64,000 nucleotides of DNA, taken from Bacteroidota bacterium. GTDB taxonomy: Bacteria > Bacteroidota > Bacteroidia > Chitinophagales > Chitinophagaceae. The notes beneath the pieces were generated by a model, which had not been told where the DNA came from, searched no databases, and saw only the letters and a program-made list of their open reading frames with translations. Of the stretch, positions 33,856 through 49,438 are shown one piece after another. The stretch lies in NCBI GenBank assembly GCA_947460175.1, contig CANHGW010000007.1, positions 15,302 through 79,301 on the forward strand. Reading direction: 5' to 3'. Position numbers and translations under genes: made by a program. Within the stretch, counting starts at the first letter, position 1, and every line of letters begins with the position of its first letter.

Positions 33856-33927
33856 GGTCCCATAGTTTAATGGATAAAACGGAAGTTTCCTAAACTTTTG
33901 ATCCAAGTTCGATTCTTGGTGGGACTA
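33856..33927 (+). tRNA. tRNA-Arg (anticodon CCT)
   Basis: Hand-folded cloverleaf. Acceptor GGTCCCA/TGGGACT, D arm GTTT-AATGGATA-AAAC, anticodon stem GAAGT/ACTTT with loop TTCCTAA, and T arm CCAAG-TTCGATT-CTTGG. CCA is not encoded. Confidence 0.85.
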
Positions 33928-36232: not shown

Positions 36233-36316
36233 GCTCAGATGGCGGAATTGGTAGACGCGCTAGACTCAAAATCTTGTATTCGCAAGGATGTGCAGGTTCG
36301 ATTCCTGTTCTGAGCA
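36233..36316 (+). tRNA. tRNA-Leu (anticodon CAA), class II with long variable arm
   Basis: Acceptor GCTCAGA/TCTGAGC, D arm GCGGAATTGGTAGACGC, anticodon loop CTCAAAA and T arm GCAGG-TTCGATT-CCTGT. There is one U-U mismatch in the anticodon stem. Confidence 0.85.
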
Positions 36317-39553: not shown

Positions 39554-40933
39554 CTAATGCTTTGATCGCTCCGCAAATAGCTGCTTAAACGATTTATGAA
39601 ATTCCAATCCATCCCGTCGCTTACCCCACGAGCCTTTAAACAATGTATTCACTACTTTGGTTTTAATTCCGGCGCCTGCTATATCCATCAGTCCTCGATG
39701 TGTTACCGCTAGTTTCCACATTTTCCAAGCGGTTTTCTCCGACAACTCCACATCATTTTTCTTTACAGCAAGTGTACGATTGTAGTGCAACATGCCATGT
39801 ATATTTATTTTCAATGGACATACTTCGGTACAATTACCACATAAGGTAGAGGCATAACTCAAATGCTTAAACTCTTCAAAATCTTTTAAGTGTGGTGTGA
39901 TTACCGAGCCAATAGGTCCACTGTAGGTAGCACCATAGGTATGACCACCAATGTTTTTATACACCGGACAAGCATTCAAGCACGAACCACATCGTATGCA
40001 ATACATACTCTCACGTACATTAGGATCCTTGAGCAAGTTCGTACGACCATTGTCAAGTAGGATGACATACATCTCCTCAGGTCCATCTACTTCTTTGCTT
40101 TTTTTAGCACCAGTAAAGATTGAATTATACACAGTTACATTTTGCCCTGTACCATAGGTAGCAAGCAAGGGCCAAAACAAATTTAAATCCTCAATCGAAG
40201 GAATCATTTTTTCAATTCCTACAATCGCCACATGTACCTTAGGGAAGGCAGTTGTAAGTCGGCCATTGCCTTCATTCTCTGTTACACATACACCACCTAC
40301 ATCGGCCAATAAAAAGTTGCCACCTGTTACACCTACACCTGCACTCGTATACATAGCTCGTAGATTTTTACGTGCTATCAAGGTTAATTCGCTGGGAGTA
40401 AGGTTGGCTTCCACACCCAATTTCTCGTGAAACAATTTGGCTACATCCTCCTTGCTTTTATGCATGGCAGGTGTTACGATATGATAAGGCGGCTCACCAT
40501 CCAATTGTTGTATATATTCACCCAAATCAGTTTCTACACTTTCGATCTGATGCTTTTCGAGAAAATCATTCAAATGAATTTCCTCCGTCACCATACTCTT
40601 ACTTTTCACCACTTGCGTAGCATTGTGTTTCTTACATATTTCTAATACAGCTTCATTGGCTTCCTTGGCATCTTGCGCCCATATCACTTTGCCTCCATTG
40701 GCTGTGAAGTTTTTTTCAAACTCTACCAAGTATTTATCCAAATTTTCGATGGTACGCCATTTGATATTTTTAGCCTTTTCGCGTGCATGACTCAAATCCG
40801 AAAACTGTTGCTTCCCCTTCACCACCACTTCATTGTATTTGCCAATATTAAACGATAACTTTCGCTTATGCTCGGCATCCATGGCTTTCACCTCGCTTTT
40901 GTTTAAAAATGTTGATTTAAGATTATGACTCAT
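39554..40933 (-). CDS. lutB: LutB/LldF-family iron-sulfur lactate-utilisation protein (LUD domain + 2x 4Fe-4S)
   Basis: Two ferredoxin-type cluster motifs (CIRCGSCLNACPVY, CGNCTEVCPLKI) follow a LUD-like domain. The ATG at 40933 is preferred over the TTG at 40993. Confidence 0.75.
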   Translation of the reverse strand: MSHNLKSTFLNKSEVKAMDAEHKRKLSFNIGKYNEVVVKGKQQFSDLSHAREKAKNIKWRTIENLDKYLVEFEKNFTANGGKVIWAQDAKEANEAVLEICKKHNATQVVKSKSMVTEEIHLNDFLEKHQIESVETDLGEYIQQLDGEPPYHIVTPAMHKSKEDVAKLFHEKLGVEANLTPSELTLIARKNLRAMYTSAGVGVTGGNFLLADVGGVCVTENEGNGRLTTAFPKVHVAIVGIEKMIPSIEDLNLFWPLLATYGTGQNVTVYNSIFTGAKKSKEVDGPEEMYVILLDNGRTNLLKDPNVRESMYCIRCGSCLNACPVYKNIGGHTYGATYSGPIGSVITPHLKDFEEFKHLSYASTLCGNCTEVCPLKINIHGMLHYNRTLAVKKNDVELSEKTAWKMWKLAVTHRGLMDIAGAGIKTKVVNTLFKGSWGKRRDGLEFHKSFKQLFAERSKH

Positions 40934-41470
40934 CGACTGGTATTTGACTACAAAAATAAGCCATAGAACATGAAAAAGAGAGAATAAATTCAACCCAACT
41001 TACGCAATAGGCTTTGACTAAGGAAAAGAATAGTGCGTTAGTTGGGGTTACCCCGATTTAGTATTTGTTATCAGATTTTGCAAAAAGCTGATTTACAAAT
41101 AATTAATCGTTTCAGTGTTTCTAATGCTGATTCTGGGTTCAAGCCTTCTCTCTATGCCATGTTGAATGCATCAATAAAGATAGAGGAGTTCAGCTATCCC
41201 GCTCTATGTTGCCACTTCGTGCTATCCGTTGCGCACGGCGCTTCCAACTATCACGACTAGTTTTCGGCGGCATGTTCATTGTGAATCGGATCAATTGTTT
41301 ACCGAAATTTACACCCATGTAAATACTCGAGAAATTCAAAAAATCAAGAGTCCATTTGATGATTTGTAAGCTTATAATATTTATTTTTGTTTAGCTATTA
41401 ACAATTTATTATAGGCTCTTTGCTCCTTATAGTGTTCATGCATTGGGAGAAAAGTAGCTCCTATAAGTAA

Positions 41471-41480
41471 GTTAGGTGCA
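41471..41480 (+). repeat. left inverted repeat of cassette-like module 1 (GTTAGGTGCA)
   Basis: Perfect 10-bp reverse complement of TGCACCTAAC at 42065-42074. It begins with a GTTRRRY-type core. Confidence 0.6.
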
Positions 41481-41526
41481 ATGTCGCCAAAACCTCAAGA
41501 ATAGAAAATATTGAACGAAATTTGAT

Positions 41527-42057
41527 ATGAAATCAACCGAAGTTTATAAAGAAATAAACAACATAATTTTTCCAAATTTGAAATCTAATGGTTTTAAAAA
41601 GACCAAAAGCGGAATGCTTGGGTATTATAAACAACTAAAAGAACATTATTTAGTATTCTGGTTTCAATGTTCACGAGACGGATTTGACGAATTTGCTGGT
41701 TCAAAATTTATTGTAGAAATACAGATAAGCAGTTCAAACGAAATTGGAACAGCTTCAATAGTTAGACAAAGAATTCCATATTTTTTGACAAAAACAGATT
41801 TTGCAGAAATTGCGAAAACAGAAAACCAAATTAAAGACAAATTACAAAAACCACCGAAGACATATTTTATTTTTAGTTTGACAGAAGACATTCAAAATTG
41901 GAATAAGAAAAAATTTGATAAGACAAATAATTCTTACGACAAATCGAGTGACATTTGGTTTTTATATTATGACAAAACAGACATTGAAAAGTGGTTAGCG
42001 ATAATTGAACCAATGATAAACAAAATAATTTACGACTATGAACAAACAGAATACTAA
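41527..42057 (+). CDS. DUF4304-like hypothetical protein
   Basis: The N-terminal pattern (IIFPNLKSNGFKKTKSG...YLVFWFQ) resembles DUF4304 proteins. No signal peptide. Confidence 0.4.
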   Translation: MKSTEVYKEINNIIFPNLKSNGFKKTKSGMLGYYKQLKEHYLVFWFQCSRDGFDEFAGSKFIVEIQISSSNEIGTASIVRQRIPYFLTKTDFAEIAKTENQIKDKLQKPPKTYFIFSLTEDIQNWNKKKFDKTNNSYDKSSDIWFLYYDKTDIEKWLAIIEPMINKIIYDYEQTEY

Positions 42058-42064
42058 CAAACAC

Positions 42065-42312
42065 TGCACCTAACATTGGTAACTGATGCACAACTCCATT
42101 TTCAAAAACATAAAATTCCTATTATCCTTTATGGAAGATGACTGAAGAGAGTAAAATAATAATTCAGTTAGTGATGTAAGAATCTATACAACCATAAAAA
42201 ATGGCAGAACTGATAATGAAATAACTTCACATTTCTTCTCACTTCGAATGGTTTTATCTATCTTCGATTGGCGCAGTCGATTGAGTTTATTCACAGACTG
42301 TCGTTGTGCGTC
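42065..42312 (+). other. attC-like inter-module spacer 1 (contains 222-bp repeat copy A)
   Basis: Starts with TGCACCTAAC and ends with GTTGTGCGTC. GATGCACAAC (42085-42094) is 9/10 complementary to GTTGTGCGTC (42303-42312). Confidence 0.45.
42079..42300 (+). repeat. 222-bp direct repeat, copy A
   Basis: Aligns by hand with 44407-44627. The 3' 108 nt or so differ at 5 positions; the 5' half is more diverged. Confidence 0.85.
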
Positions 42313-42363
42313 ACTTTATAAAAAACTGCATAGAAAGAAAATAGTGATAAAAATTTAATTAAA

Positions 42364-42795
42364 TTGAAACCAGAAGAACTACAAAATATTATTGACAAAT
42401 TTGACGAAAACGACCTAAAACAAAAAAGTGTTTTTGGCATCTTTCAATATGGAGGGGGCTCTGAAGAGAGTTTTATAAAAGCGAATAAAGAAGGACTTGA
42501 ACTTTTTGCATTACAATTATTAAAAGCTTCAAATGAAGTAGATTTAATTCTTGCTGACAAAGAAAAAAATAATATTCTTCTTGACTATACTGAAAATTGG
42601 ATTCACCAAGACAGTCAAACTTTTTTACAATATATTGAACCTACAACCGAAAAACAAATAAACTATCCAAACGAAGAGAACAAGACAACATTCGCTGACA
42701 AAATTATGCCATACGGCTGTGGACTTATTTTAATTATTCTTGCAATTTCTACCTTTGTTGGGCTTGGAACTATAATTAAATGGATTTCAAATTAA
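42364..42795 (+). CDS. hypothetical protein with C-terminal transmembrane helix
   Basis: 143-aa ORF with a TTG start and a C-terminal hydrophobic helix (GCGLILIILAISTFVGLGTII). It is 6 bp upstream of the next ORF. Confidence 0.4.
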   Translation: MKPEELQNIIDKFDENDLKQKSVFGIFQYGGGSEESFIKANKEGLELFALQLLKASNEVDLILADKEKNNILLDYTENWIHQDSQTFLQYIEPTTEKQINYPNEENKTTFADKIMPYGCGLILIILAISTFVGLGTIIKWISN

Positions 42796-42801
42796 TAACT
42801 T

Positions 42802-43044
42802 ATGGCTACTCAAATTTGTCCAAATTGTAATAAAGATAGTTTTACTTGTTACATATTAGAAGAAGATGATAAATTTACAACTTGGCTATGTCATTCTTGT
42901 TCATTTAAAGCATTTGAAGACGAAAGTTTAGAAAGAATTTGCCTAAACTGTAAGACAAAAACTGAAATACAATTTAATGTACTAGACAAAAAATATTGGT
43001 GGTGTAACAATTGTATGAAGTACGAATTAATAAAAGAAAAATAA
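42802..43044 (+). CDS. small zinc-ribbon protein (four CxxC pairs)
   Basis: CPNC, CHSC, CLNC and CNNC pairs in 80 aa. Confidence 0.5.
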   Translation: MATQICPNCNKDSFTCYILEEDDKFTTWLCHSCSFKAFEDESLERICLNCKTKTEIQFNVLDKKYWWCNNCMKYELIKEK

Positions 43045-43053
43045 AAGCGAACT

Positions 43054-43170
43054 CACAACATCCGTTTTGCGATATTGAGGCTGATGCACAAAATTTGAAC
43101 ATTGGAATTCTATTGATCTTTTGTACTAAATTGAACATTTCCAACATCGCAAAGCCGAGAACCGTTAGGT
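43054..43170 (+). other. attC-like inter-module spacer 2 (117 bp imperfect palindrome)
   Basis: Starts with CACAAC and ends with GTTAGGT. The internal stem TTTGCGATATTG (43066-43077) pairs with CAACATCGCAAA (43142-43153) with one mismatch. It contains CTGATGCACAA at 43081-43091. Confidence 0.5.
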
Positions 43171-43207
43171 ACGACTGCTAAACCTAACTTACATAATTTA
43201 ATTATAT

Positions 43208-43228
43208 TACCAAATTTTGGTACATTTG
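43208..43228 (+). promoter_or_regulatory. candidate parDE promoter with overlapping palindromic operator
   Basis: The palindrome TACCAAA-T-TTTGGTA (43208-43222) overlaps TACATTTG (43221-43228, TAnnTTTG), 15 nt before the parD ATG. Confidence 0.5.
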
Positions 43229-43242
43229 TAAAAAGTATAAAT

Positions 43243-43494
43243 ATGGGACGCAATACATCAATCTCATTAGGCGATCATTTTGAAGACTTTATAGAACATA
43301 CCATAAATGACGGCCGATTTAATAATGCTAGCGAAGTGATTCGTGCTGGACTTCGCCTTCTGGAAGATGAAGAAAACAAAATACTAGCATTACGAAAAGC
43401 AATAGATAAAGGCTTGAAAAGTGGTCGAGCAATCGATTTTAATCCTAAAACGCATCTTGAATTTCTAAAAGCAAAGAAAAAATCAAATGGTTAA
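43243..43494 (+). CDS. parD: type II antitoxin, ParD family (ribbon-helix-helix)
   Basis: NTSISLGDHFEDFI...GRFNNASEVIRAGLRLLEDEE is the conserved ParD/COG3609 core. It overlaps the toxin gene by 8 nt. Confidence 0.85.
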   Translation: MGRNTSISLGDHFEDFIEHTINDGRFNNASEVIRAGLRLLEDEENKILALRKAIDKGLKSGRAIDFNPKTHLEFLKAKKKSNG

Positions 43495-43780
43495 ATACTA
43501 TTTTTCCAATGAAGCCGTCGAAGATTTATCTGAAATATGGAACTACACTTTTAGTACTTGGTCTGAAAAGCAAGCAGACACTTATTATAAATTAATTTTG
43601 AATTCATGCAATGAACTGGCACGAAATCCGAGCATAGGGAAAGAGTATGAAATTGTAACAAAAGGCATATTGGGATTTAGAGCTGGTGAACATATTATAT
43701 TTTATCATGTCATTTCTCAGAATGAAATTGAAGTCGCAAGAATCCTACATAGCATGATGGACTTAAAGAGTAAAATTTAA
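43487..43780 (+). CDS. parE: type II toxin, RelE/ParE family
   Basis: 97 aa with the typical ParE pattern (A.EDL.EIW.Y...W...QA..Y...I......L...P..G...) and translational coupling to parD. Confidence 0.8.
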   Translation: MVKYYFSNEAVEDLSEIWNYTFSTWSEKQADTYYKLILNSCNELARNPSIGKEYEIVTKGILGFRAGEHIIFYHVISQNEIEVARILHSMMDLKSKI

Positions 43781-43785
43781 ACCGA

Positions 43786-43920
43786 ACCTAACAGCGCAGA
43801 AAAGAAATGCCGGGCTGAGTCTAAGGGCTGAACAATTTAATCATCTAAGATCTGCGAATAAATGTTTTACTTTTTCTCTATCTTTGTCTGGCACAGCTTC
43901 TGCGGTCAGAACGTTGGCGG
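43786..43920 (+). other. attC-like inter-module spacer 3 (135 bp)
   Basis: Starts with ACCTAAC and ends with GTTGGCGG. The inner stem is CGCAGAA (43795-43801) with TTCTGCG (43898-43904). Confidence 0.5.
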
Positions 43921-43957
43921 AAAGGCAAGAACCGATACGATATCTAATGTAGATTTG

Positions 43958-44410
43958 ATGAATTTAAAAAATAAGTTGGATGAATATCTGATAAATGGGT
44001 TAGACAGGAATAATATCTTGATATACAAAATTGATATTCAGAAGGATGAATGCTCTAGATATGTATTCACTATAAGATTTCAAATTCCGATTCCAAAACC
44101 TTTTCCATTATCAAGAACTATTCTCTTTGATGTAACGAATGAGAAATATAAAAGGAAAGATATTGTAACAAACATATACATCTTCATCGCGAATATCATA
44201 ATGTCAATAATAGTAAGTTGTGATATTTTATGCAATTTAGATGAAATACAATCTGAATTTAGGATAATACAAATAATAGCAATATTATTAACTCCATTGG
44301 TTATGACAATATTTCCTTACTTGATAATTAGAAAATATATGTCTAGAATAACTCTCGGATACGAAGATAAAGAAATGATAAATGATCATCCCTACCGCCA
44401 ACAGCAGTAA
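43958..44410 (+). CDS. small hypothetical membrane protein
   Basis: The ATG at 43958 lies downstream of the GTTGGCGG boundary. Two hydrophobic helices. The stop overlaps the CCGCCAAC site. Confidence 0.4.
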   Translation: MNLKNKLDEYLINGLDRNNILIYKIDIQKDECSRYVFTIRFQIPIPKPFPLSRTILFDVTNEKYKRKDIVTNIYIFIANIIMSIIVSCDILCNLDEIQSEFRIIQIIAILLTPLVMTIFPYLIIRKYMSRITLGYEDKEMINDHPYRQQQ

Positions 44411-44627
44411 CTGATACACAACTACTATTTAAAAATCAAGAATATCCTATTATCGTATATGGAAGATGACAGAATAGAGAAAAATAAAAATTCAATTAGT
44501 GATGCGAGTATGTATAGAACATAAAAAATGGCAGAACTGATATTGAAAAAACTTCACATTTCTTCTCACTTCGAATGGTTTTATCTATCTTCGATTGACG
44601 CAGTCGACTGAGTTTTTTCACAGACTG
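44407..44627 (+). repeat. 222-bp direct repeat, copy B
   Basis: Aligns with 42079-42300. Unlike copy A it is not followed by a GTTGTGC core. It ends 54 bp before the ATPase start. Confidence 0.85.
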
Positions 44628-44680
44628 CCTTTAGTAGCTAGTATAAGTGTCATCACAGCATAAATCAGACAATCATTTAA

Positions 44681-47170
44681 ATGATAAACGGACTAACAAG
44701 TATTCAAGCAGCAGAAAAAATAAAACTTGAAGGTTACAATGAATTAGCATCTGCTAAACCAAAGAACATACTAAGCATTGCGTTGGAGGTAATAAAAGAA
44801 CCTATGTTTCTTTTATTAATAAGTTGTGGAATTCTTTACATGATTCTGGGAGATTACAAGGAAGGCATCATTTTACTATCAGCGATCTTCATCATCATCT
44901 TCATTACCTTTTATCAATATCAAAAAACAGAAAAAGCCTTAGAGGCACTCAAAAAACTTTCTTCGCCTCGGGCATTGGTTATTCGTGATGGAAAAGAAAT
45001 AAGAATACCTGGCAGAGAAGTGGTAACAGATGACATTATTATAATAAACGAAGGCGACCGCATACCCGCTGACGCTGTTCTACTTGACAGCTTGAACATA
45101 TCCGTTGATGAATCATTGCTTACGGGCGAATCAGTTCCAGTGGTAAAAAATGTTCAGTTAGATGAAGCGAATACCCAAGTAATGCTTTTCAGCGGCACAC
45201 TTGTGGTTCAGGGAAAAGGAATAGCGAAGGTTTTAAGCACTGGAACTAAAACACAATTTGGCAAAATAGGAATATCGTTGCAAAGCATTGAACAGGATGA
45301 AACCCGATTGCAAAAGGAAATGAAAGTTCTTATTCGTAATCTCTTTATTGCCGGTGCTATTATCAGCATAGGTGTTGTGGCGGCATTTTATTTTACACGA
45401 GGAAATTTAATACAATCAGTGCTCAATGGACTAGCAGCTGCCATGGCCATTTTACCTGAAGAATTTCCAGTAGTGCTTACTGTATTTCTTGCGTTGGGAG
45501 CATGGCGTTTATCCAAGAAAAATGTATTGACCCGAAAGCCATCAGCTATTGAAACGCTGGGTTCTGCGACTGTTTTGTGCAGCGATAAAACAGGCACGAT
45601 TACACTAAACAAAATGGAAGTAGTTGCTTTGTGTGACGACAATAAAATCTATCATAAAAGTGACTTCAAAGATAATAAAGAACTTCTTCAGGATTTAATT
45701 ACGTCTGCATTTCGTGCCTCGCAAAATGATTCAATTGACCCTATGGAAAAAGCTATTGTAAATGCATATCGAGAAATAGTAACAGAAAAAAATCAATCAG
45801 AAAAATTAATAAAGGAGTATCCATTAAGCAAACAACTCTTTGCCATGACAAGAGTGTTGGAGGGCGCATCTCATGAATCCTTTTCTGTATTTAGTAAAGG
45901 GGCGCCAGAAGCCATTTTTGCTTTATGCAAAATGAACGAGCAGGAAATTGCACCGCAAATTGCTTCTGTAAATCAAATGGCAGAAAAAGGCTATCGGGTT
46001 ATTGCCGTTGCAATAACATCATGGAATCAGCAAACATTACCAGAAACTCAATACGATTTTGATTTTAAATTTCTCGGACTCATCGGCTTTGAAGACCCTA
46101 TACGACCCGAAGTTCCTCAAGCTATCAAGGAATGTAATGAAGCAGGAATAAAAGTAATTATGATTACCGGAGATTTCCCCGCAACTGCAACCAGTATCGC
46201 CTCACAAATCGGGCTTCAATCTGCTGAAAATGTATTAACGGGAAATGATTTAAAAAAATTGAATGATGCGCAACTACAGGAAAAAATTAAAACAGTGAAT
46301 GTTTTTGCACGAATTATTCCTGAGCAAAAACTCCAAATCATAAAAGCATTAAAAGCAAATGGTGAAATCGTAGCCATGACGGGAGATGGCGTAAATGATG
46401 CACCTGCATTAAAAGCTGCTGACATTGGAGTGGCTATGGGTGGTAAAGGTACCGATGTAGCAAGAGAGGCATCTTCCTTGGTTTTGCTTGATGACAACTT
46501 CGCTTCCATTGTTTCAGCTATTCGCTCAGGAAGAAAAATATACGATAACCTGCAAAAAGCAATGTCATATATTCTTGCTATTCATATACCGATAATTGGA
46601 CTTGCGCTATTGCCTGCGTTTTTCACTTCGCTACCATTACTATTAATGCCATTGCACATTGTTTTTATGGAACTAATTATTGATCCTGTTTGCTCTGTTG
46701 CTTTTGAATCGGAACAAGAAGAAAAAGGAATAATGCAACGTCCACCTCGAAACCCCAATGAATTATTTTTTGGTTGGCACAAAATGGTATTCAGTTTAAT
46801 TCAAGGATTATTGCTATTGATAATGGTACTAGTCGTTTATTTTTTATCCATTCACGAAGGACATAACGAGCGTGAAGTTAGAGCAATTGCCTTTTCCTCA
46901 CTTATAATCGGTAATATATTCCTTATTCTTACATCACTTTCAAAAACCAGAAATTTCATTTCAATATTGATGGAAAAAAATATTGCAGTAATTCTTATTA
47001 TTGCAATCGCATTGACGCTATTGTTTGTGATAATATCTGTTCCTGCACTACAACAAATTTTCAGTTTTCAATTTCCTGGGTACAACCATTTTATTTCTTC
47101 GATAACTGGTGCTGCTATCATTTTACTGATATTTGAATCATATAAATTTATCAAGACAAAATGGAGATAA
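44681..47170 (+). CDS. cation-translocating P-type ATPase (type II, Ca2+/Mg2+-like)
   Basis: Phosphorylation site DKTGTIT, TGES actuator motif, hinge GDGVNDAPALKAADIGVAMG and about 10 TM helices. Confidence 0.9.
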   Translation: MINGLTSIQAAEKIKLEGYNELASAKPKNILSIALEVIKEPMFLLLISCGILYMILGDYKEGIILLSAIFIIIFITFYQYQKTEKALEALKKLSSPRALVIRDGKEIRIPGREVVTDDIIIINEGDRIPADAVLLDSLNISVDESLLTGESVPVVKNVQLDEANTQVMLFSGTLVVQGKGIAKVLSTGTKTQFGKIGISLQSIEQDETRLQKEMKVLIRNLFIAGAIISIGVVAAFYFTRGNLIQSVLNGLAAAMAILPEEFPVVLTVFLALGAWRLSKKNVLTRKPSAIETLGSATVLCSDKTGTITLNKMEVVALCDDNKIYHKSDFKDNKELLQDLITSAFRASQNDSIDPMEKAIVNAYREIVTEKNQSEKLIKEYPLSKQLFAMTRVLEGASHESFSVFSKGAPEAIFALCKMNEQEIAPQIASVNQMAEKGYRVIAVAITSWNQQTLPETQYDFDFKFLGLIGFEDPIRPEVPQAIKECNEAGIKVIMITGDFPATATSIASQIGLQSAENVLTGNDLKKLNDAQLQEKIKTVNVFARIIPEQKLQIIKALKANGEIVAMTGDGVNDAPALKAADIGVAMGGKGTDVAREASSLVLLDDNFASIVSAIRSGRKIYDNLQKAMSYILAIHIPIIGLALLPAFFTSLPLLLMPLHIVFMELIIDPVCSVAFESEQEEKGIMQRPPRNPNELFFGWHKMVFSLIQGLLLLIMVLVVYFLSIHEGHNEREVRAIAFSSLIIGNIFLILTSLSKTRNFISILMEKNIAVILIIAIALTLLFVIISVPALQQIFSFQFPGYNHFISSITGAAIILLIFESYKFIKTKWR

Positions 47171-47446
47171 ATATGAGTTGCATCAGTTTTCTACTTTTAT
47201 CAATAACAAATAAGCCATTACATAAAAATACATTTTCAATAGGCAAGATTTTGTGATCAGCAGACAGTTTTGTGGTAACCGTAAGTTCAGTTTTCGGCAT
47301 CTGTATTTATGGTCAAAAACCCGCTCATATTAATTCTGAAAAGTCTTGGTTTGAAAAAAATAAATTTTTGAATTTCATTTCAATAAACAAATTATTTGTA
47401 GAAGTTAACTAGTTTTCATTAGAAGTTAACTAAGTGACTAAATTTT

Positions 47447-49438
47447 TTATTCCACTAAAATCTTTTTCACCATGAGTTGCTTACCTGCAATGATTTTAAC
47501 GGTATAAATACCTTTTGCTAATTGCAACGGCACCTTTGTTTCATTTACAAAAGAACTAGTTGAAACCAATTGTCCTTGCAAGGTATAAATTTGATAAATA
47601 GCTTCCCCTTTGATGCCTTCTATCGTTAACAAATTGCGTACAGGATTTGGATATAAATTACAATCAAGTGATACAATATCCTTGATGGATGTAGGATTAT
47701 ACCAAACCTGACCTACATTATTCCCATATATATAACTAGCCAACTCGGGCATATCAATAAATGGATTTCGATTGAGCTGCCATGTATAAATATAATTGTT
47801 TCGATACATTTCAAAATCATCGCGTGGGTCTGAAAGATTCCAAGAAAGCAGGCTATCCAAATCTCCCAATTTATATGTAGTAGTATCATCAGGATTACCG
47901 CTTACAAGTGATAGACCATTGTAACGTACAGCCATATAAAATAATGCACGAGACACATCTCCTCTCCAGCTATTCATAGTTCCTACAGGGCCATTATAAT
48001 CGGTACCGCCATAATCCTTGTTGTTACGGGTACTATTTTCGGGACCATCCTCTGCACGTAAATGATGTGCATCTGCATGACCAGCTAAAAGGTCATTGGC
48101 ATTCGTTGGCAAATACACATTGATACCATCTGAGGTATCACTTGTACCATTTGAAAATCCACCTCTTGATTGTGGAAAGATATGTTCTCGATTCCATTTA
48201 CCTGTTCCACTGCCTGTAGTTTGATAATCTAATTTAGCACGTGGTGTCTCAACATACATCAACCACACTTGATTCCCGTTTTTAGGATTATGATCAGCCT
48301 CTTTGAGTAAATCTGGCATATCACCATAGCAATGAGCATGTACCACATTGGAATCGGCAATAATATTTTGCAAAGCTTGTTTCAATGCAGCACCAGATAG
48401 CCCATTGATAGAATTATAATAACCGGCAGGCGCTGTACTTGTAACTACACCATAGGTTGGTTGCAATGGCGTACCCCATGGGTCAACGGTATAATCATTA
48501 TCCACCACACGTATTTCTACATTGTCGTTCAATCGATTATAACCTGTAGGCAGGGGCGCAAATTTTATTTTCAACACTTCATCTCCTTCATTAAGTATAT
48601 CGTCGACCAAGGTAATAGTTGTTGTAGTAGAATTGAGTCCAATAGGTATTGTCATATTGATTACACCTGTATAATCAGAAGTATTAAAACTTCCATTGGT
48701 TAAACTAAAAGAAAAATTCAACGTTGATACAACATTCGTTTGTGTGGTAAACGTAATGTGCATTGTATCACCCTCTCCACGATGGGCTGTATTAGCCCAT
48801 ATCTTTACTCCATTATATACAACTCCACTTCCATCATTCATGGCTCCTGGTGTTGGCAATTTCACTTCGTAGCTACCATCATTTTTACGTTGTATAGATT
48901 CCGTAGCTTGAGCATTATTTTCATTTTCATTCATTTGGACTTGCGGCAATACAATGCCAAGCAATGCCATAAGTGCAAGTGCATCAGGATCGCTTGTATC
49001 ATATGCCAATGCATGCACCAAATTGGCGGTAGAAGCCAATGTACCATCTGGAAAATCAGCAACTGTTCCTTGATAAACAGCTATAGCATCTTCCCCATTT
49101 TGGATAATATTATCTGAAAAAATAATATCTGGTACTGGAGATACAAGATTATTACCTAGCGTTGCTATCCCGTTAGCATCGGTTACTAATCCATTCAAAC
49201 TAAGTGTATAATAACTCATGTTGGCATTGCTGGCTGTGGGATTACCATTGAAAAAAACCAATACATGTCCATTTAATGAAGTGAATGGTATCAGCGTACG
49301 TAACTCTACAAATTCCATATTATCAATGCCAGGAGTATCCGAATCCAATTCATTGATAAAGATTTGTGCTTTAGATAGATTGCTGATGAAAACAAAAAAT
49401 GTGAGCAGCAGCAAACTAGTTAGTTTATATATATTCAT
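47447..49438 (-). CDS. secreted endonuclease I family nuclease with lamin-tail, Calx-beta-like and T9SS sorting domains
   Basis: Signal peptide. LTD-like start (IFINELDSDTPGIDNMEFVELR), Calx-beta-like DDILNEGDE, endonuclease I motifs (WNREHIFPQSRGG, DAHHL, RNPFID) and CTD (LYPNPV...GIYTVKI). Confidence 0.8.
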   Translation of the reverse strand: MNIYKLTSLLLLTFFVFISNLSKAQIFINELDSDTPGIDNMEFVELRTLIPFTSLNGHVLVFFNGNPTASNANMSYYTLSLNGLVTDANGIATLGNNLVSPVPDIIFSDNIIQNGEDAIAVYQGTVADFPDGTLASTANLVHALAYDTSDPDALALMALLGIVLPQVQMNENENNAQATESIQRKNDGSYEVKLPTPGAMNDGSGVVYNGVKIWANTAHRGEGDTMHITFTTQTNVVSTLNFSFSLTNGSFNTSDYTGVINMTIPIGLNSTTTTITLVDDILNEGDEVLKIKFAPLPTGYNRLNDNVEIRVVDNDYTVDPWGTPLQPTYGVVTSTAPAGYYNSINGLSGAALKQALQNIIADSNVVHAHCYGDMPDLLKEADHNPKNGNQVWLMYVETPRAKLDYQTTGSGTGKWNREHIFPQSRGGFSNGTSDTSDGINVYLPTNANDLLAGHADAHHLRAEDGPENSTRNNKDYGGTDYNGPVGTMNSWRGDVSRALFYMAVRYNGLSLVSGNPDDTTTYKLGDLDSLLSWNLSDPRDDFEMYRNNYIYTWQLNRNPFIDMPELASYIYGNNVGQVWYNPTSIKDIVSLDCNLYPNPVRNLLTIEGIKGEAIYQIYTLQGQLVSTSSFVNETKVPLQLAKGIYTVKIIAGKQLMVKKILVE

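Follow-up and report, generated by a model that had tools for sequence, protein, structure and literature searches.

The closest described system to the locus analysed here is rAID-1 of Bacteroidales, in which a predicted Xer-family tyrosine recombinase sits at the 5′ end of an array of short, low-G+C genes and is co-oriented with it, and in which the intergenic repeats, where contigs often break, were considered "reminiscent of integrons" by the authors (bioRxiv 10.1101/471110; PMC12247911). The accessible portions of these sources describe neither a G|TT crossover nor 10-bp covarying arms, and they make no mention of stem architecture, an attI-like junction or a relation to IntI. rAID-1 is defined by identity to the recombinase of B. 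fragilis and has been described in Bacteroidales only. As for integrons, IntegronFinder surveys found essentially no complete ones in Bacteroidetes proper (PMC9024848).

The stretch of DNA studied here (the window, 64,000 nt from a member of the Chitinophagaceae) carries four mobile gene cassettes that form a real array, built like that of an integron but tied to an Xer/IntI-related recombinase. Judged from sequence, we consider that the interval 41301-44632 is, with a probability of roughly 0.85, what is left of a gene-capture platform that resembles an integron and belongs to a type widespread in Bacteroidota (Table 1); most of the support for this reading comes from comparisons between genomes. 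Compared by description, the locus resembles rAID-1 in its 5′ co-oriented Xer-family recombinase, its short low-G+C genes (30.6% G+C for the array vs 36-40% in the flanking genes) and its repetitive spacers. The cargo of rAID-1, however, consists of immunity genes, whereas family searches of the array cargo returned no immunity or defence family, and a function is recognised for parDE only, a toxin-antitoxin pair. The product of cassette 1 has no Pfam match and that of cassette 4 no family match.

Table 1. Annotated features of the array and of its upstream junction, in window coordinates.
Feature	Position	Strand	Description
3′ remnant of tyrosine recombinase gene	41301..41369	+	22 codons TEIYTHVNTREIQKIKSPFDDL and stop
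attI-like region	41370..41471	+	ends TATAAGTAA|GTTA
-7 box in attI-like region, Bacteroidota-type	41382-41389		TATTTTTG, facing array
Cassette 1	41472..42303	+	left arm TTAGGTGCA; inverse-core arm TGCACCTAAC, 42065-42074; S1-type site to G 42303
Cassette 1 ORF	41527-42057	+	176 aa
S1 site body	42072..42305	+	AAC...GTT, 234 bp; 3′ arm TTCACAGACTGTC, degenerate 5′ arm GTAACTGATGCACAAC
Cassette 2 (tentative)	42304..43164	+	inverse-core arm 43050-43059 (8/10); S2 site to G 43164
Cassette 2 ORF 1	42364-42795	+	143 aa, hydrophobic C-terminal stretch (by eye)
Cassette 2 ORF 2	42802-43044	+	80 aa, four CxxC motifs
S2 site body	43057..43166	+	AAC...GTT, 110 bp; stem GTTTTGCGATATTG / CAACATCGCAAAGC
Cassette 3	43165..43913	+	inverse-core arm CGAACCTAAC, 43783-43792 (9/10); S3 site to G 43913
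Cassette 3 own -7 box	43221		TACATTTG
parD	43243-43494	+	Pfam ParD 1.6e-25
parE	43487-43780	+	Pfam ParE 1.3e-17
S3 site body	43790..43915	+	126 bp; stem CGCAGAA/TTCTGCG plus TGCC/GGCA
S3 -7 box	43879		TATCTTTG, facing cassette 4
Cassette 4	43914..44632	+	inverse-core arm 44393-44402 (9/10), overlapping ORF end
Cassette 4 ORF	43958-44410	+	150 aa, hydrophobic stretches (by eye)
Module 1 boundary repeat	41471-41480 / 42065-42074		GTTAGGTGCA / TGCACCTAAC, 10/10 complementary
Module 2 boundary repeat	42303 / 43054-43059		GTTGTGCG / CACAAC
Module 3 boundary repeat	43164 / 43786-43792		GTTAGGT / ACCTAAC
Module 4 boundary repeat	43913 / 44395-44402		GTTGGCGG / CCGCCAAC

Cassette boundaries in the window and in other genomes

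The initial annotation had divided the interval into four modules with matched GTT/AAC boundaries, and all the motifs that it quoted are in place. Scored over 10 bp, the arm length used by related arrays (as opposed to 7 bp in integrons), the arms of modules 1-4 match at 10/10, 8/10, 9/10 and 9/10 positions; shuffling of the downstream spacers gave P = 0.0013, 0.49, 0.03 and 0.017, respectively, which is only moderate inside the window. Perfect GTT/AAC repeats of ≥7 bp also flank 3 of the 52 ORFs taken as controls from the rest of the window. The window as a whole holds 73 perfect pairs of ≥8 bp spaced within 4 kb, and short arms alone therefore prove nothing. Such numbers, together with the value for module 2 and with spacers that, instead of folding stably as had been expected, have no folding advantage over shuffled sequence (z -1.4 to +1.1), would suit repeats that arose by chance in intergenic DNA rich in A+T, the locus then being a small-gene cluster with a duplicated intergenic repeat (S1/S4). 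This explanation is barely credible, however: it is already contradicted by homology with unrelated genomes that breaks exactly at G|TT in cassettes 1 and 3, and the arms covary, with S2 and S3 belonging to site families whose stems covary as well.

The homology of cassette 1 and the parDE cassette with unrelated genomes starts at G|TT (41471 and 43164), and that of recurring cassettes stops either at their own ...AAC or at the next G|TT. Homologues of cassette 1 (P0004) occur in at least four distinct upstream settings, and what they have in common begins only at G|TTAGGTGCA; the BLAST alignment of this cassette to L013 has its endpoints at 41471 and 42073. The two arms covary among these homologues (GTTAGCGGCT/AGCCGCTAAC, GTTAGGTGTA/TACACCTAAC), as do end arms across taxa (GTGCA/TGCAC, GTGTA/TACAC, CGGCT/AGCCG; 14 bp in a Gemmatimonadales MAG). 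Seven MAG or metagenome loci share the parDE cassette between G|TTAGGT and the following G|TT, and in the MAG loci L046-L055 the window homology runs exactly from G|TTAGGT through an S3-type site to the next G|TT. A difference in whole cassettes is seen between L046 and L052, namely a 4.4-kb cassette block located between two 139-nt site copies.

For modules 1 and 3, these comparisons bear out three earlier proposals, namely that the modules are mobile cassettes, that crossover occurs at G|TT, and that the first bases of a cassette are complementary to its own inverse core; the last two are features of integrons. The matched boundaries of module 2 did not fare as well, its 8/10 arms being no better than chance in the spacer shuffling and finding no confirmation in other genomes. 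A homologue of its 80-aa ORF is present in a co-oriented but decayed array (L176), next to another upstream partner. The simple model of a site travelling with its ORF does not predict the three different site bodies found after the cassette-1 ORF, which are S1-type in the window, S3-type in L029 (a copy 90% identical to S3) and of 122 bp in the P0004 loci, and which therefore point to extra exchange at ...AAC or to repeated cassette formation.

Architecture of the inter-cassette sites

The palindromic recombination sites postulated between cassettes find support in related arrays, where the inter-cassette sites fall into families with covarying stems, arranged as AAC-3 nt-18-bp stem...stem-5 nt-GTT and with strand-biased mismatches. 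Matched arms pair at -19.2 kcal/mol vs -9.6 kcal/mol for mismatched ones, a site's own arm ranks first or second in 22 of 26 sites, and 18 of the 26 have ungapped stems. Nearly all stem mismatches (48/53) are A/G or T/C, in a ratio of 35:13, and the bottom strand is the more stable one in 21 of 26 sites (p = 0.0026). In an Agriterribacter MAG, an array of more than 20 kb has AAC...GTT sites and 10-bp arms of the same kind. Like those of integrons, the sites are imperfectly palindromic and have inner stems as well as AAC/GTT cores, and site types are homogeneous within an array; they differ from integron sites in having transition mismatches instead of extrahelical bases, in reaching 260 bp and in often bearing their own promoter.

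Within the window, the inner stems noted earlier in S2 and S3 are the top two AAC-hairpin-GTT structures on both strands of the 64 kb, in that order (-13.3 and -13.2 vs -12.5 kcal/mol for the next). Among the 26 3′ arms, the best partner for S2 is its own (-13.3 kcal/mol), and the mismatches of S2 (T/C and A/G) fit the family pattern; the arm pairing of S3 is weak (-11.1 kcal/mol, rank 5/26). By arm-pairing energy, no convincing L''/L' stem was found in S1 (-5.6 kcal/mol, rank 12/26), nor any convincing stem in S4. These two sites form a direct repeat of ~235 bp (S4, 44400-44632), 78-94% identical from AAC up to the base preceding the core, and represent a promoter-bearing type whose 3′-arm family occurs at least 120 times in metagenomes, mostly with TAnnTTTG just before it. 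S4 closes the array with a degenerate core, TTT in place of GTT at 44630-44632. The initial annotation had overlooked this repeat and this core, as well as the recombinase remnant. It had also listed CTGATGCACAAC (42083, 43081 and 44411) as a separate recurring motif, which turns out to be the degenerate 5′ arm of the S1-type site, its 8 matches against 4.7 expected not being significant by count; the supposed inverted copies at 41161 and 47177 can be aligned only with indels and are unsupported.

The S1-type repeat is dispersed, abundant and promoter-bearing, and the recombinase discussed below is about equally close to Xer proteins and to IntI; both facts would suit another route, either Xer-dependent dif-like modules (cf. 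pdif of Acinetobacter plasmids) or homologous recombination between MITE/REP-type promoter-bearing repeats, and the latter, acting on the 139-nt copies, could also account for the L046/L052 difference. We nonetheless regard such a route as very unlikely: no conserved 28-bp dif-like site flanks the modules, their arms are module-specific and covary, and the junctions are base-precise at G|TT even between unrelated site bodies, a precision that homologous recombination does not give.

An Xer/IntI-related recombinase and its attI-like junction

The array was at first taken to be without an integrase, but the last 22 codons of its cognate recombinase gene, which is deleted down to this remnant, lie with an attI-like junction directly upstream (41301-41471) and contiguous with cassette 1. 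The remnant contains the catalytic-Tyr motif YTHV and a C-terminal SPFD tail, is 73% identical over 22 aa to a fragment in L010 (tblastn, whole window, E = 6e-6), and aligns at the nucleotide level with four recombinase 3′ ends from 41301 onward. We propose G 41471 as the crossover base of the junction; in L010, L040, L041 and L042, the TATA....AGTTA junction is invariant and the distance from the stop codon is alike (95-101 bp). An attI adjoining the recombinase with an outward promoter, as well as toxin-antitoxin cassettes, are likewise known from integrons.

Flavobacterium daemonense has an intact 347-aa homologue directly upstream of a comparable array, in the same orientation, and F. gilvum and one metagenome contig show the same layout with a disrupted recombinase gene. 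Co-oriented recombinase genes directly precede the arrays in L040, L041 and L042 and, on the short contigs L010 and L111, a lone cassette or site; where the downstream sequence is at hand, the gene always adjoins an array, a link that covers six loci including the window, with several of the recombinase copies themselves disrupted. This type of recombinase is common in Bacteroidota; homologous protein clusters number at least 8000, and a 68%-identical protein is encoded in a Bacteroidales MAG (Paludibacter).

In sequence, the recombinase is closest to archaeal XerA and bacterial XerC/XerD resolvases (NCBIfam XerA_Arch, 223-227 bits vs a cut-off of 220; top PDB matches 4a8e and 5hxy), which differ in using one conserved double-stranded dif site per replicon with no cassette array behind. 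The protein aligns with IntI4 (2a3v) through the C-terminal SPxD tail, with residues 186-242 skipped. We rejected its assignment as an IntI, as it is without the IntI-specific insertion and scores 204-213 bits with the NCBIfam integron-integrase model, below the cut-off of 265; its 75-aa N-terminal extension and its co-orientation with the array are further differences from integrons. A XerC/D-type gene near a cassette in L017 encodes a different, housekeeping protein (XerC model 317 bits, integron model 120 bits). The evidence points to the non-IntI recombinase that had been raised as a hedge, as in recombinase-associated islands of Bacteroidales.

An ordinary integron remnant (CALIN), with canonical attC sites, a classical IntI elsewhere or lost and an unrelated Xer-like neighbour, would show the same crossover base and AAC/GTT cores, and the cassette-1 gene family, with GTTAGsC.../...GsCTAAC arms, is also found in MAGs of Gemmatimonadales, Planctomycetota, Blastocatellia and Proteobacteria, phyla with known integrons (PMC8618304). 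It is an unlikely source of the array, however: neither the window nor ~40 loci of 10-20 kb, collected through protein homology, yielded an IntI, the remnant and junction abut cassette 1 at the spacing of four other loci, the sites lack bulged bases, can be as long as 260 bp and often bear promoters, and surveys with IntegronFinder list essentially no complete integron for Bacteroidetes proper (PMC9024848).

Proposed mechanism

Based on the integron-like reading, we propose that an intact platform would comprise a tyrosine recombinase gene (345-348 aa), an attI-like site ~100 bp beyond it in the same orientation, ending TATA....A|GTTA and bearing an outward-facing promoter, and the cassettes, all co-oriented. 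Each cassette would start with TT and ~8 bases, continue with one or two small ORFs and end in a 10-base arm (...AAC) complementary to its own start; a recombination site of 110-260 bp would come next, consisting of AAC, 3 nt, an ungapped ~18-bp stem, a variable body, the other stem half, 5 nt and G. Like IntI, the recombinase would cut and rejoin at G|TT between folded single-stranded sites, with a preference for the bottom strand, a single-strand mechanism suggested by the mismatch asymmetry. Neither extrahelical bases nor the IntI insertion by which these are read would take part. A Bacteroidota promoter (TAnnTTTG) is present in many of the sites, and the cassettes would thereby be expressed individually. 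In the window, only 22 codons of the recombinase gene are left and the last site is without its GTT, so that the four cassettes have probably become immobile, barring the action in trans of a second copy of the recombinase.

Cassette boundaries in the array and in other genomes

Six small plus-strand ORFs lie between the lutB-like and P-type ATPase genes and are grouped in four cassettes, all co-oriented (see table). Every GTT/AAC motif that the initial annotation quoted for these modules is present at its position; the observation is confirmed, and the integron-like interpretation placed on it is supported and has been sharpened. ParD and ParE are the only Pfam families above cut-off among the six cargo ORFs. 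The remaining four gave no Pfam and no PADLOC match, and an exact look-up of the cassette-4 150-aa protein returned no record. The G+C content is 30.6% in the array, 36-40% in the flanking genes and 34% in the whole window. The site bodies S1 and S4 form a 235-bp direct repeat, 78-94% identical, whose ends fall exactly at the AAC of one boundary and at the base preceding the next core; the core closing S4 is TTT instead of GTT (44630-44632). In a global alignment of the five spacers, only S1 and S4 were alignable. Rfam, searched over 40.9-47.4 kb with gathering thresholds and as an E-value scan, gave nothing relevant and one weak match, a sub-threshold Flavo-1 RNA (41211-41262, minus strand; score 23 bits, gathering score 42 bits, E = 0.21) located in the gap that precedes the recombinase remnant. 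To the right of the array, the T9SS Por_Secre_tail domain of the Endonuclease I protein supports a Bacteroidota host.

Features of the array and its surroundings
Feature	Coordinates	Strand	Content or setting
tRNA genes (two)	33856-33927; 36233-36316	plus	5-8 kb left of the array
lutB-like gene	39554-40993	minus	left flank of the array
Cassette 1 cargo		plus	one ORF, 176 aa
S1	42072-42305		site body after cassette 1
Cassette 2 cargo		plus	two ORFs, 143 aa and 80 aa
S2	43057-43166		site body after cassette 2
-7 box TACATTTG	43221		parDE's own
Cassette 3 cargo		plus	ParD, 83 aa, and ParE, 97 aa (Pfam)
S3	43790-43915		site body after cassette 3
Perfect -7 box TATCTTTG	43879		in S3, facing cassette 4
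Cassette 4 cargo		plus	one ORF, 150 aa
S4	44400-44632		site body after cassette 4
P-type ATPase gene	44681-47170		right flank of the array
Endonuclease I protein gene	47447-49438	minus	663 aa, C-terminal Por_Secre_tail (T9SS) sorting domain

When the downstream spacer was shuffled, the arm pairs of modules 1-4, that is, the first bases of a cassette (GTT...) and its complementary last bases (...AAC, the inverse core), gave P = 0.0013, 0.49, 0.03 and 0.017, respectively. Elsewhere in the window, 3 of 52 control ORFs have a GTT/AAC repeat that is perfect over 7 bp or more, and perfect pairs of at least 8 bp, no more than 4 kb apart, number 73 in the window. The in-window evidence is by itself only moderate and leaves the question open, and module 2 fails.

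Comparison with other genomes settles the G|TT boundaries of cassettes 1 and 3, at which flank homology breaks; the claim of a cassette boundary at G|TT with self-complementary arms stands for these two, and the comparison did not confirm it for module 2. P0004, a homologue 85% identical to the 176-aa protein of cassette 1, occurs in several distinct genomic settings (between DEAD helicase and DprA-like genes, beside an LlaJI restriction system, beside a Fic gene and beside an IS), and in all of them the identity starts exactly at G|TTAGGTGCA, behind four distinct upstream flanks. When a Saprospiraceae MAG locus (L013) was compared blind with the window by BLAST, 41471-42073 aligned at 91% identity and nothing else did. 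In one locus (L006:9223-10548, GCA_964269105.1), which has an LlaJI-type restriction system as neighbour, the cassette-1 homologue is tandem-duplicated, the period being 721 bp. For the parDE cassette, homology to the window at seven loci begins exactly at G|TTAGGT, continues through the S3-type site and ends at the next G|TT, and the site upstream is a different one, with an S1-type 3' arm. The window ParD is at least 90% identical to proteins in many Bacteroidota MAGs. Presence/absence polymorphism of whole modules, which the initial annotation had named as a check on its reading, was found: the arrays of loci L046 and L052 are 99% identical, and L046 alone carries an extra 4.4-kb cassette block bracketed by two 139-nt site copies, where L052 has one copy. 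An IS with a DDE_Tnp_1 transposase lies in opposite orientation ~170 bp upstream of parD in L046-L053 (e.g. L046:4290-5834), its transposase gene being fragmented in some of these loci; the IS near parDE is seen in several MAGs and, from a reading of the flanks, splits the S1-type site ~60 nt before G|TT.

A genome-collection scan recovered the cassette-1 gene family from Flavobacterium, Chryseobacterium, Saprospiraceae, Chitinophagaceae, Agriterribacter, Niabella, Kapaibacterium and Sphingobacterium, and also from MAGs of Gemmatimonadales, Planctomycetota, Blastocatellia and Proteobacteria. Of 24 loci of the family examined, 13 have GTT.../...AAC arms at the same position that pair perfectly over 7 bp or more, and the variable bases of these arms covary (GTTAGGTGCA / TGCACCTAAC, GTTAGGTGTA / TACACCTAAC, GTTAGCGGCT / AGCCGCTAAC and GTTAGCCCCCACCG / CGGTGGGGGCTAAC). 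Distant homologues of the cassette-1 protein (33-38% identity) in Gemmatimonadales, Proteobacteria, Blastocatellia and Planctomycetota MAGs (L033-L036) bear arms of 7-14 bp, GTTAGsC.../...GsCTAAC, as is typical of classical integron cassettes; the flanks examined at these four loci hold no integrase. Their integron-type arms suggest that classical integrons and platforms of the window type both carry the cassette-1 gene family in circulation.

The closest relatives of the window cassettes belong to Saprospiraceae, Flavobacterium, Chitinophagaceae and unclassified Bacteroidota MAGs. The 80-aa ORF of module 2 has a homologue in a decayed array (L176), where the junction motifs are degenerate, and module 2 is only tentatively a cassette. 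Three ~1-kb Logan contigs (L001-L003), from independent read-set assemblies, correspond to window ~41087-42107 and carry cassette 1 only, with breaks inside S1 at ~42107 and at ~41087. The right-hand break fits a repeat; the left-hand one might reflect differences between strains where the recombinase is deleted.

Hairpin sites, strand bias and putative promoters

The spacers had been described as palindromes with inner stems. Folded on both strands with DNA parameters, S1-S4 show no stability excess over dinucleotide shuffles (z -1.4 to +1.1), and the minimum free energy is therefore unsuited as a detector here. The description holds better for S2 and S3 in a scan of the arm-duplex energy of every AAC...GTT interval of 70-300 nt on both strands of the 64 kb, in which they are the top two hairpins (-13.3 and -13.2 kcal/mol, the next being -12.5). 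Near the top of the same scan (-12.3 kcal/mol), an AAC...GTT interval at 40967-41163 (40962-41168), with the start of lutB on one side and the recombinase remnant on the other, has 23-nt inverted arms that are 78% complementary (CATAGAACATGAAAAAGAGAGAA / TTCTCTCTATGCCATGTTGAATG); either a relic site or a chance match would account for it. This interval overlaps the inverted motif previously reported at 41161, and a mismatch search recovers neither that copy nor the one at 47177. Directly past the ATPase stop, the minus strand at 47174-47188 reads AACTGATGCAACTC, which equals the S1 5' arm AACTGATGCACAACTC with a 2-nt gap.

An Agriterribacter MAG (L012; GCA_047601545.1) contains a co-oriented array of more than 20 kb, with acetyltransferase, glyoxalase, SnoaL and RibD_C genes among its cassettes. 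Almost all of its spacers read ...AAC-ATTGGTATTGCCAATAGTGGGGCTGAC...CCAACCATCGGCAATACCTGTTC-GTT..., and the first 10 bases of a cassette are complementary to its own last 10, exactly 10 bp in most. We compared 26 distinct AAC...GTT sites from the window and seven other loci, S4 not being among those scored. Pairing of 5' and 3' arms within a site averages -19.2 kcal/mol, versus -9.6 ± 3.2 across different sites, and the own partner arm ranks first or second in 22 of the 26. Ungapped stems with at least 15 of 18 positions matched occur in 18 sites, usually beginning 3 nt past AAC and ending 5 nt ahead of GTT. Nearly all stem mismatches are transitions (48/53; 35 A-for-G and 13 T-for-C, read on the 5' arm) and, from a reading of the arm sequences, they occupy the same stem positions across diverged site families. 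The 35 A-for-G mismatches become G·T wobbles on the bottom strand, whose hairpin is the stabler one in 21/26 sites (Wilcoxon p = 0.0026). Extrahelical bases of the integron style were not found in this set: 18 of the 26 stems are ungapped, and the asymmetry comes from the A/G and T/C mismatches. Among the window sites, S2 follows this architecture in a short form, its own arm ranking first and the T/C and A/G pattern being present; S3 is weaker (own arm rank 5), and S1 lacks a convincing stem (rank 12), with S4 sharing its degenerate 5' arm.

The 3' arm of the S1-type sites, GTTTTTTCACAGnCTGnC|GTT, was found in at least 120 metagenome stretches, and a metagenome scan with a 24-mer from the S1/S4 body gave no match. 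Among the 3'-arm matches listed, many lie ~100 nt from a contig end, and most have a Bacteroidota -7 box, TAnnTTTG, ~25-30 nt before the arm and then a different cassette start each, roughly GTTRnnnGCAA. The 3'-arm pattern is nearly its own reverse complement. Full S1-type members start AAC|GTCAGnCTGTGAAAAAAC, and one locus (L100) bears both arms, ~100 nt apart. In the window, the AAC is followed in both S1 and S4 by GTAACTGATGCACAAC, which looks like a degenerate version of the S1-type 5' arm; this explains the recurring CTGATGCACAAC motif of the initial annotation. Predicted promoters carried cassette by cassette, presumably active, set window-type arrays apart from classical integrons.

Downstream of the cassette-1 ORF, the inverse-core arm stays the same while the site body is of three unrelated kinds: S1-type in the window, S3-type in L029 and a 122-bp type at the P0004 loci. 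The simple integron model does not predict this. Exchange might also occur at ...AAC, for instance by top-strand recombination; alternatively, the cassette may have been re-formed repeatedly.

Recombinase remnant and family

The window holds no tyrosine recombinase ORF, as the initial annotation stated, but a 22-codon remnant had been missed. In a short metagenome contig (L010), a recombinase gene ends just upstream of the cassette, and window 41301-41366 encodes TEIYTHVNTREIQKIKSPFDDL, 73% identical to the final 22 residues of that gene product, and then a stop (E = 6e-6 over the whole window). Aligned as nucleotides with the 3' ends of four recombinase genes, the window matches from 41301 onward, and ~100 poorly conserved bases come next; TATA....AGTTA at the first cassette junction is common to all five sequences, and a -7 box lies at 41382, just past the stop codon of the remnant. 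From the shared 3' end and junction we infer that cassette 1 sits at an attI-like site and that the recombinase gene was deleted up to 41300. Continued mobility of the array would then depend on a recombinase copy elsewhere in the genome. A further recombinase end lies upstream of an S1-type site in locus L111. The tyrosine recombinase of locus L017 was rejected as a cognate enzyme, being of the housekeeping XerC/D type and separated from the cassette by a 1057-aa gene.

The family is large, with 3077 matches to the fragment query and at least 8000 clusters for the full-length query, which matched all 8000 candidates scored. Intact members of 345-348 aa occur in Flavobacterium, Pedobacter, Pelobium and Paludibacter, and some are entered at NCBI as 'site-specific tyrosine recombinase/integron integrase'; a homologue in a Paludibacter (Bacteroidales) MAG is 68% identical. 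In F. daemonense (GCA_007341385.1), at least 12 small ORFs, PemK and ParDE pairs among them, stand behind an intact 347-aa recombinase gene in the same orientation. F. gilvum (L041:9314-10465, JNCP01000021.1) shows this arrangement too, its sites being very uniform at 125 bp, and its recombinase gene carries two frameshifts. Many database entries of the family consist of the catalytic domain only (154-192 aa) and lie mostly on ~1-kb contigs, which may come from frequent inactivation, from a frameshift site that recurs or from breaks in the contigs. An 87-aa GIY-YIG endonuclease ORF stands in frame inside one recombinase gene (L040:9692-9955; JGI 3300057098, Ga0574184_000003), between the SAM-like and catalytic domains and with stop codons on both sides; it looks like a mobile insertion splitting the gene.

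Scored against NCBIfam models, the intact family member P0230 and one reconstructed homologue exceed the cut-off for archaeal XerA (223-227 bits; cut-off 220) and fall below those for the integron integrase TIGR02249 (204-213; 265), XerD (193-198; 330) and XerC (187-189; 335). Alignment with IntI4 of Vibrio (2a3v) is split in two, leaving out IntI4 residues 186-242, where the IntI-specific insertion lies, and extends into the C-terminal SPxD tail, with the catalytic R, K, H-x-x-R, H and Y visible. With TIGR02249 below its cut-off and the insertion skipped, the family is therefore close to IntI but without the IntI-defining feature, which agrees with the earlier suggestion of a recombinase specificity other than that of IntI. 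The insertion is considered essential for attC recombination; by the 2006 account of MacDonald and colleagues, it reportedly contacts the extrahelical bases of attC. Its absence from the recombinase and the absence of bulged bases from the sites would fit together.

Relation to integrons and rAID-1

The array shares with integrons the G|TT boundary and the complementarity of a cassette to its own inverse core, seen here for cassettes 1 and 3. The sites may or may not qualify as imperfect palindromes (R''-L''...L'-R') of the kind that the attC covariance model recognises: the palindromic layout and covarying stems are present in the site family and in S2 and S3, S1 and S4 are stemless, and Rfam at gathering thresholds gives no match in the array interval. 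The catalytic-domain insertion, an IntI feature (IntegronFinder intI_Cterm, TIGR02249), is lacking in the homologues, and the window has a remnant. Within the integron-like recombinase subgroup, Smyshlyaev et al. state that the insertion 'is not fully conserved' (PMC8138268). For Bacteroidetes, IntegronFinder formerly knew In0 elements only and, in version 2.0, one complete integron, in Salinibacter; this near-absence from the surveys was called intriguing (PMC9024848). Modules of the pdif type are flanked by inverted conserved 28-bp XerC/XerD binding sites, and we rejected them as a model here, the boundary arms being module-specific and sharing GTTR...YAAC only.

rAID-1 arrays were defined by a XerD-like recombinase at the 5' end with 44% or more identity to B. 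fragilis BF9343_RS08045, at least two co-directional downstream genes with G+C ≤41% and repetitive intergenic motifs, with orphan immunity gene cargo and a Bacteroidales host (Ross et al. 2019); a 2025 follow-up still defines them by recombinase, array and 'conserved intergenic sequence motifs' (PMC12247911). Compared by gene content, repeats, cargo and host, the window array has six co-directional low-G+C ORFs (array 30.6%) and repetitive intergenic motifs, namely the S1/S4 repeat and S2, S3 and S1-type sites that recur in other arrays. It differs in host and in cargo, of which ParD/ParE alone are recognised. In the literature, incompletely covered, we found no description of the crossover point, arms, stem architecture or attI-like site of such arrays, nor of such arrays outside Bacteroidales, which is no proof of novelty.

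The best classification for the window element is a decayed representative of an integron analogue that is rAID-1-like and Bacteroidota-wide. We give slightly better than even odds (about 0.55) to the reading that Bacteroidota possess an integron analogue of their own, phylum-wide, with an XerA/IntI-related recombinase without the insertion, strand-biased and often promoter-bearing hairpins, and a cross-phylum gene family. In such a system, fixed strand-biased mismatches may replace the extrahelical bases of hairpin sites, and a cassette gene family with matching G|TT ends may also occur in the phyla of classical integrons; the rAID-1 arrays of gut Bacteroidales would then form one of its branches. 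The window and its relatives point to an abundant system parallel to integrons (at least 8000 recombinase clusters and at least 120 matches for one site type), with the same crossover base and cassette logic and a recombinase without the IntI-defining insertion. If confirmed, it would offer a natural experiment on structure-specific, strand-selective recombination without extrahelical bases, and a simple annotation rule for Bacteroidota cassettes (G|TT, 10-bp arms, 3-nt and 5-nt spacers). It would also explain many small Bacteroidota genes found on ~1-kb contigs in assemblies, and would extend the concept of rAID-1 to hosts other than gut Bacteroidales and to cargo other than immunity genes.
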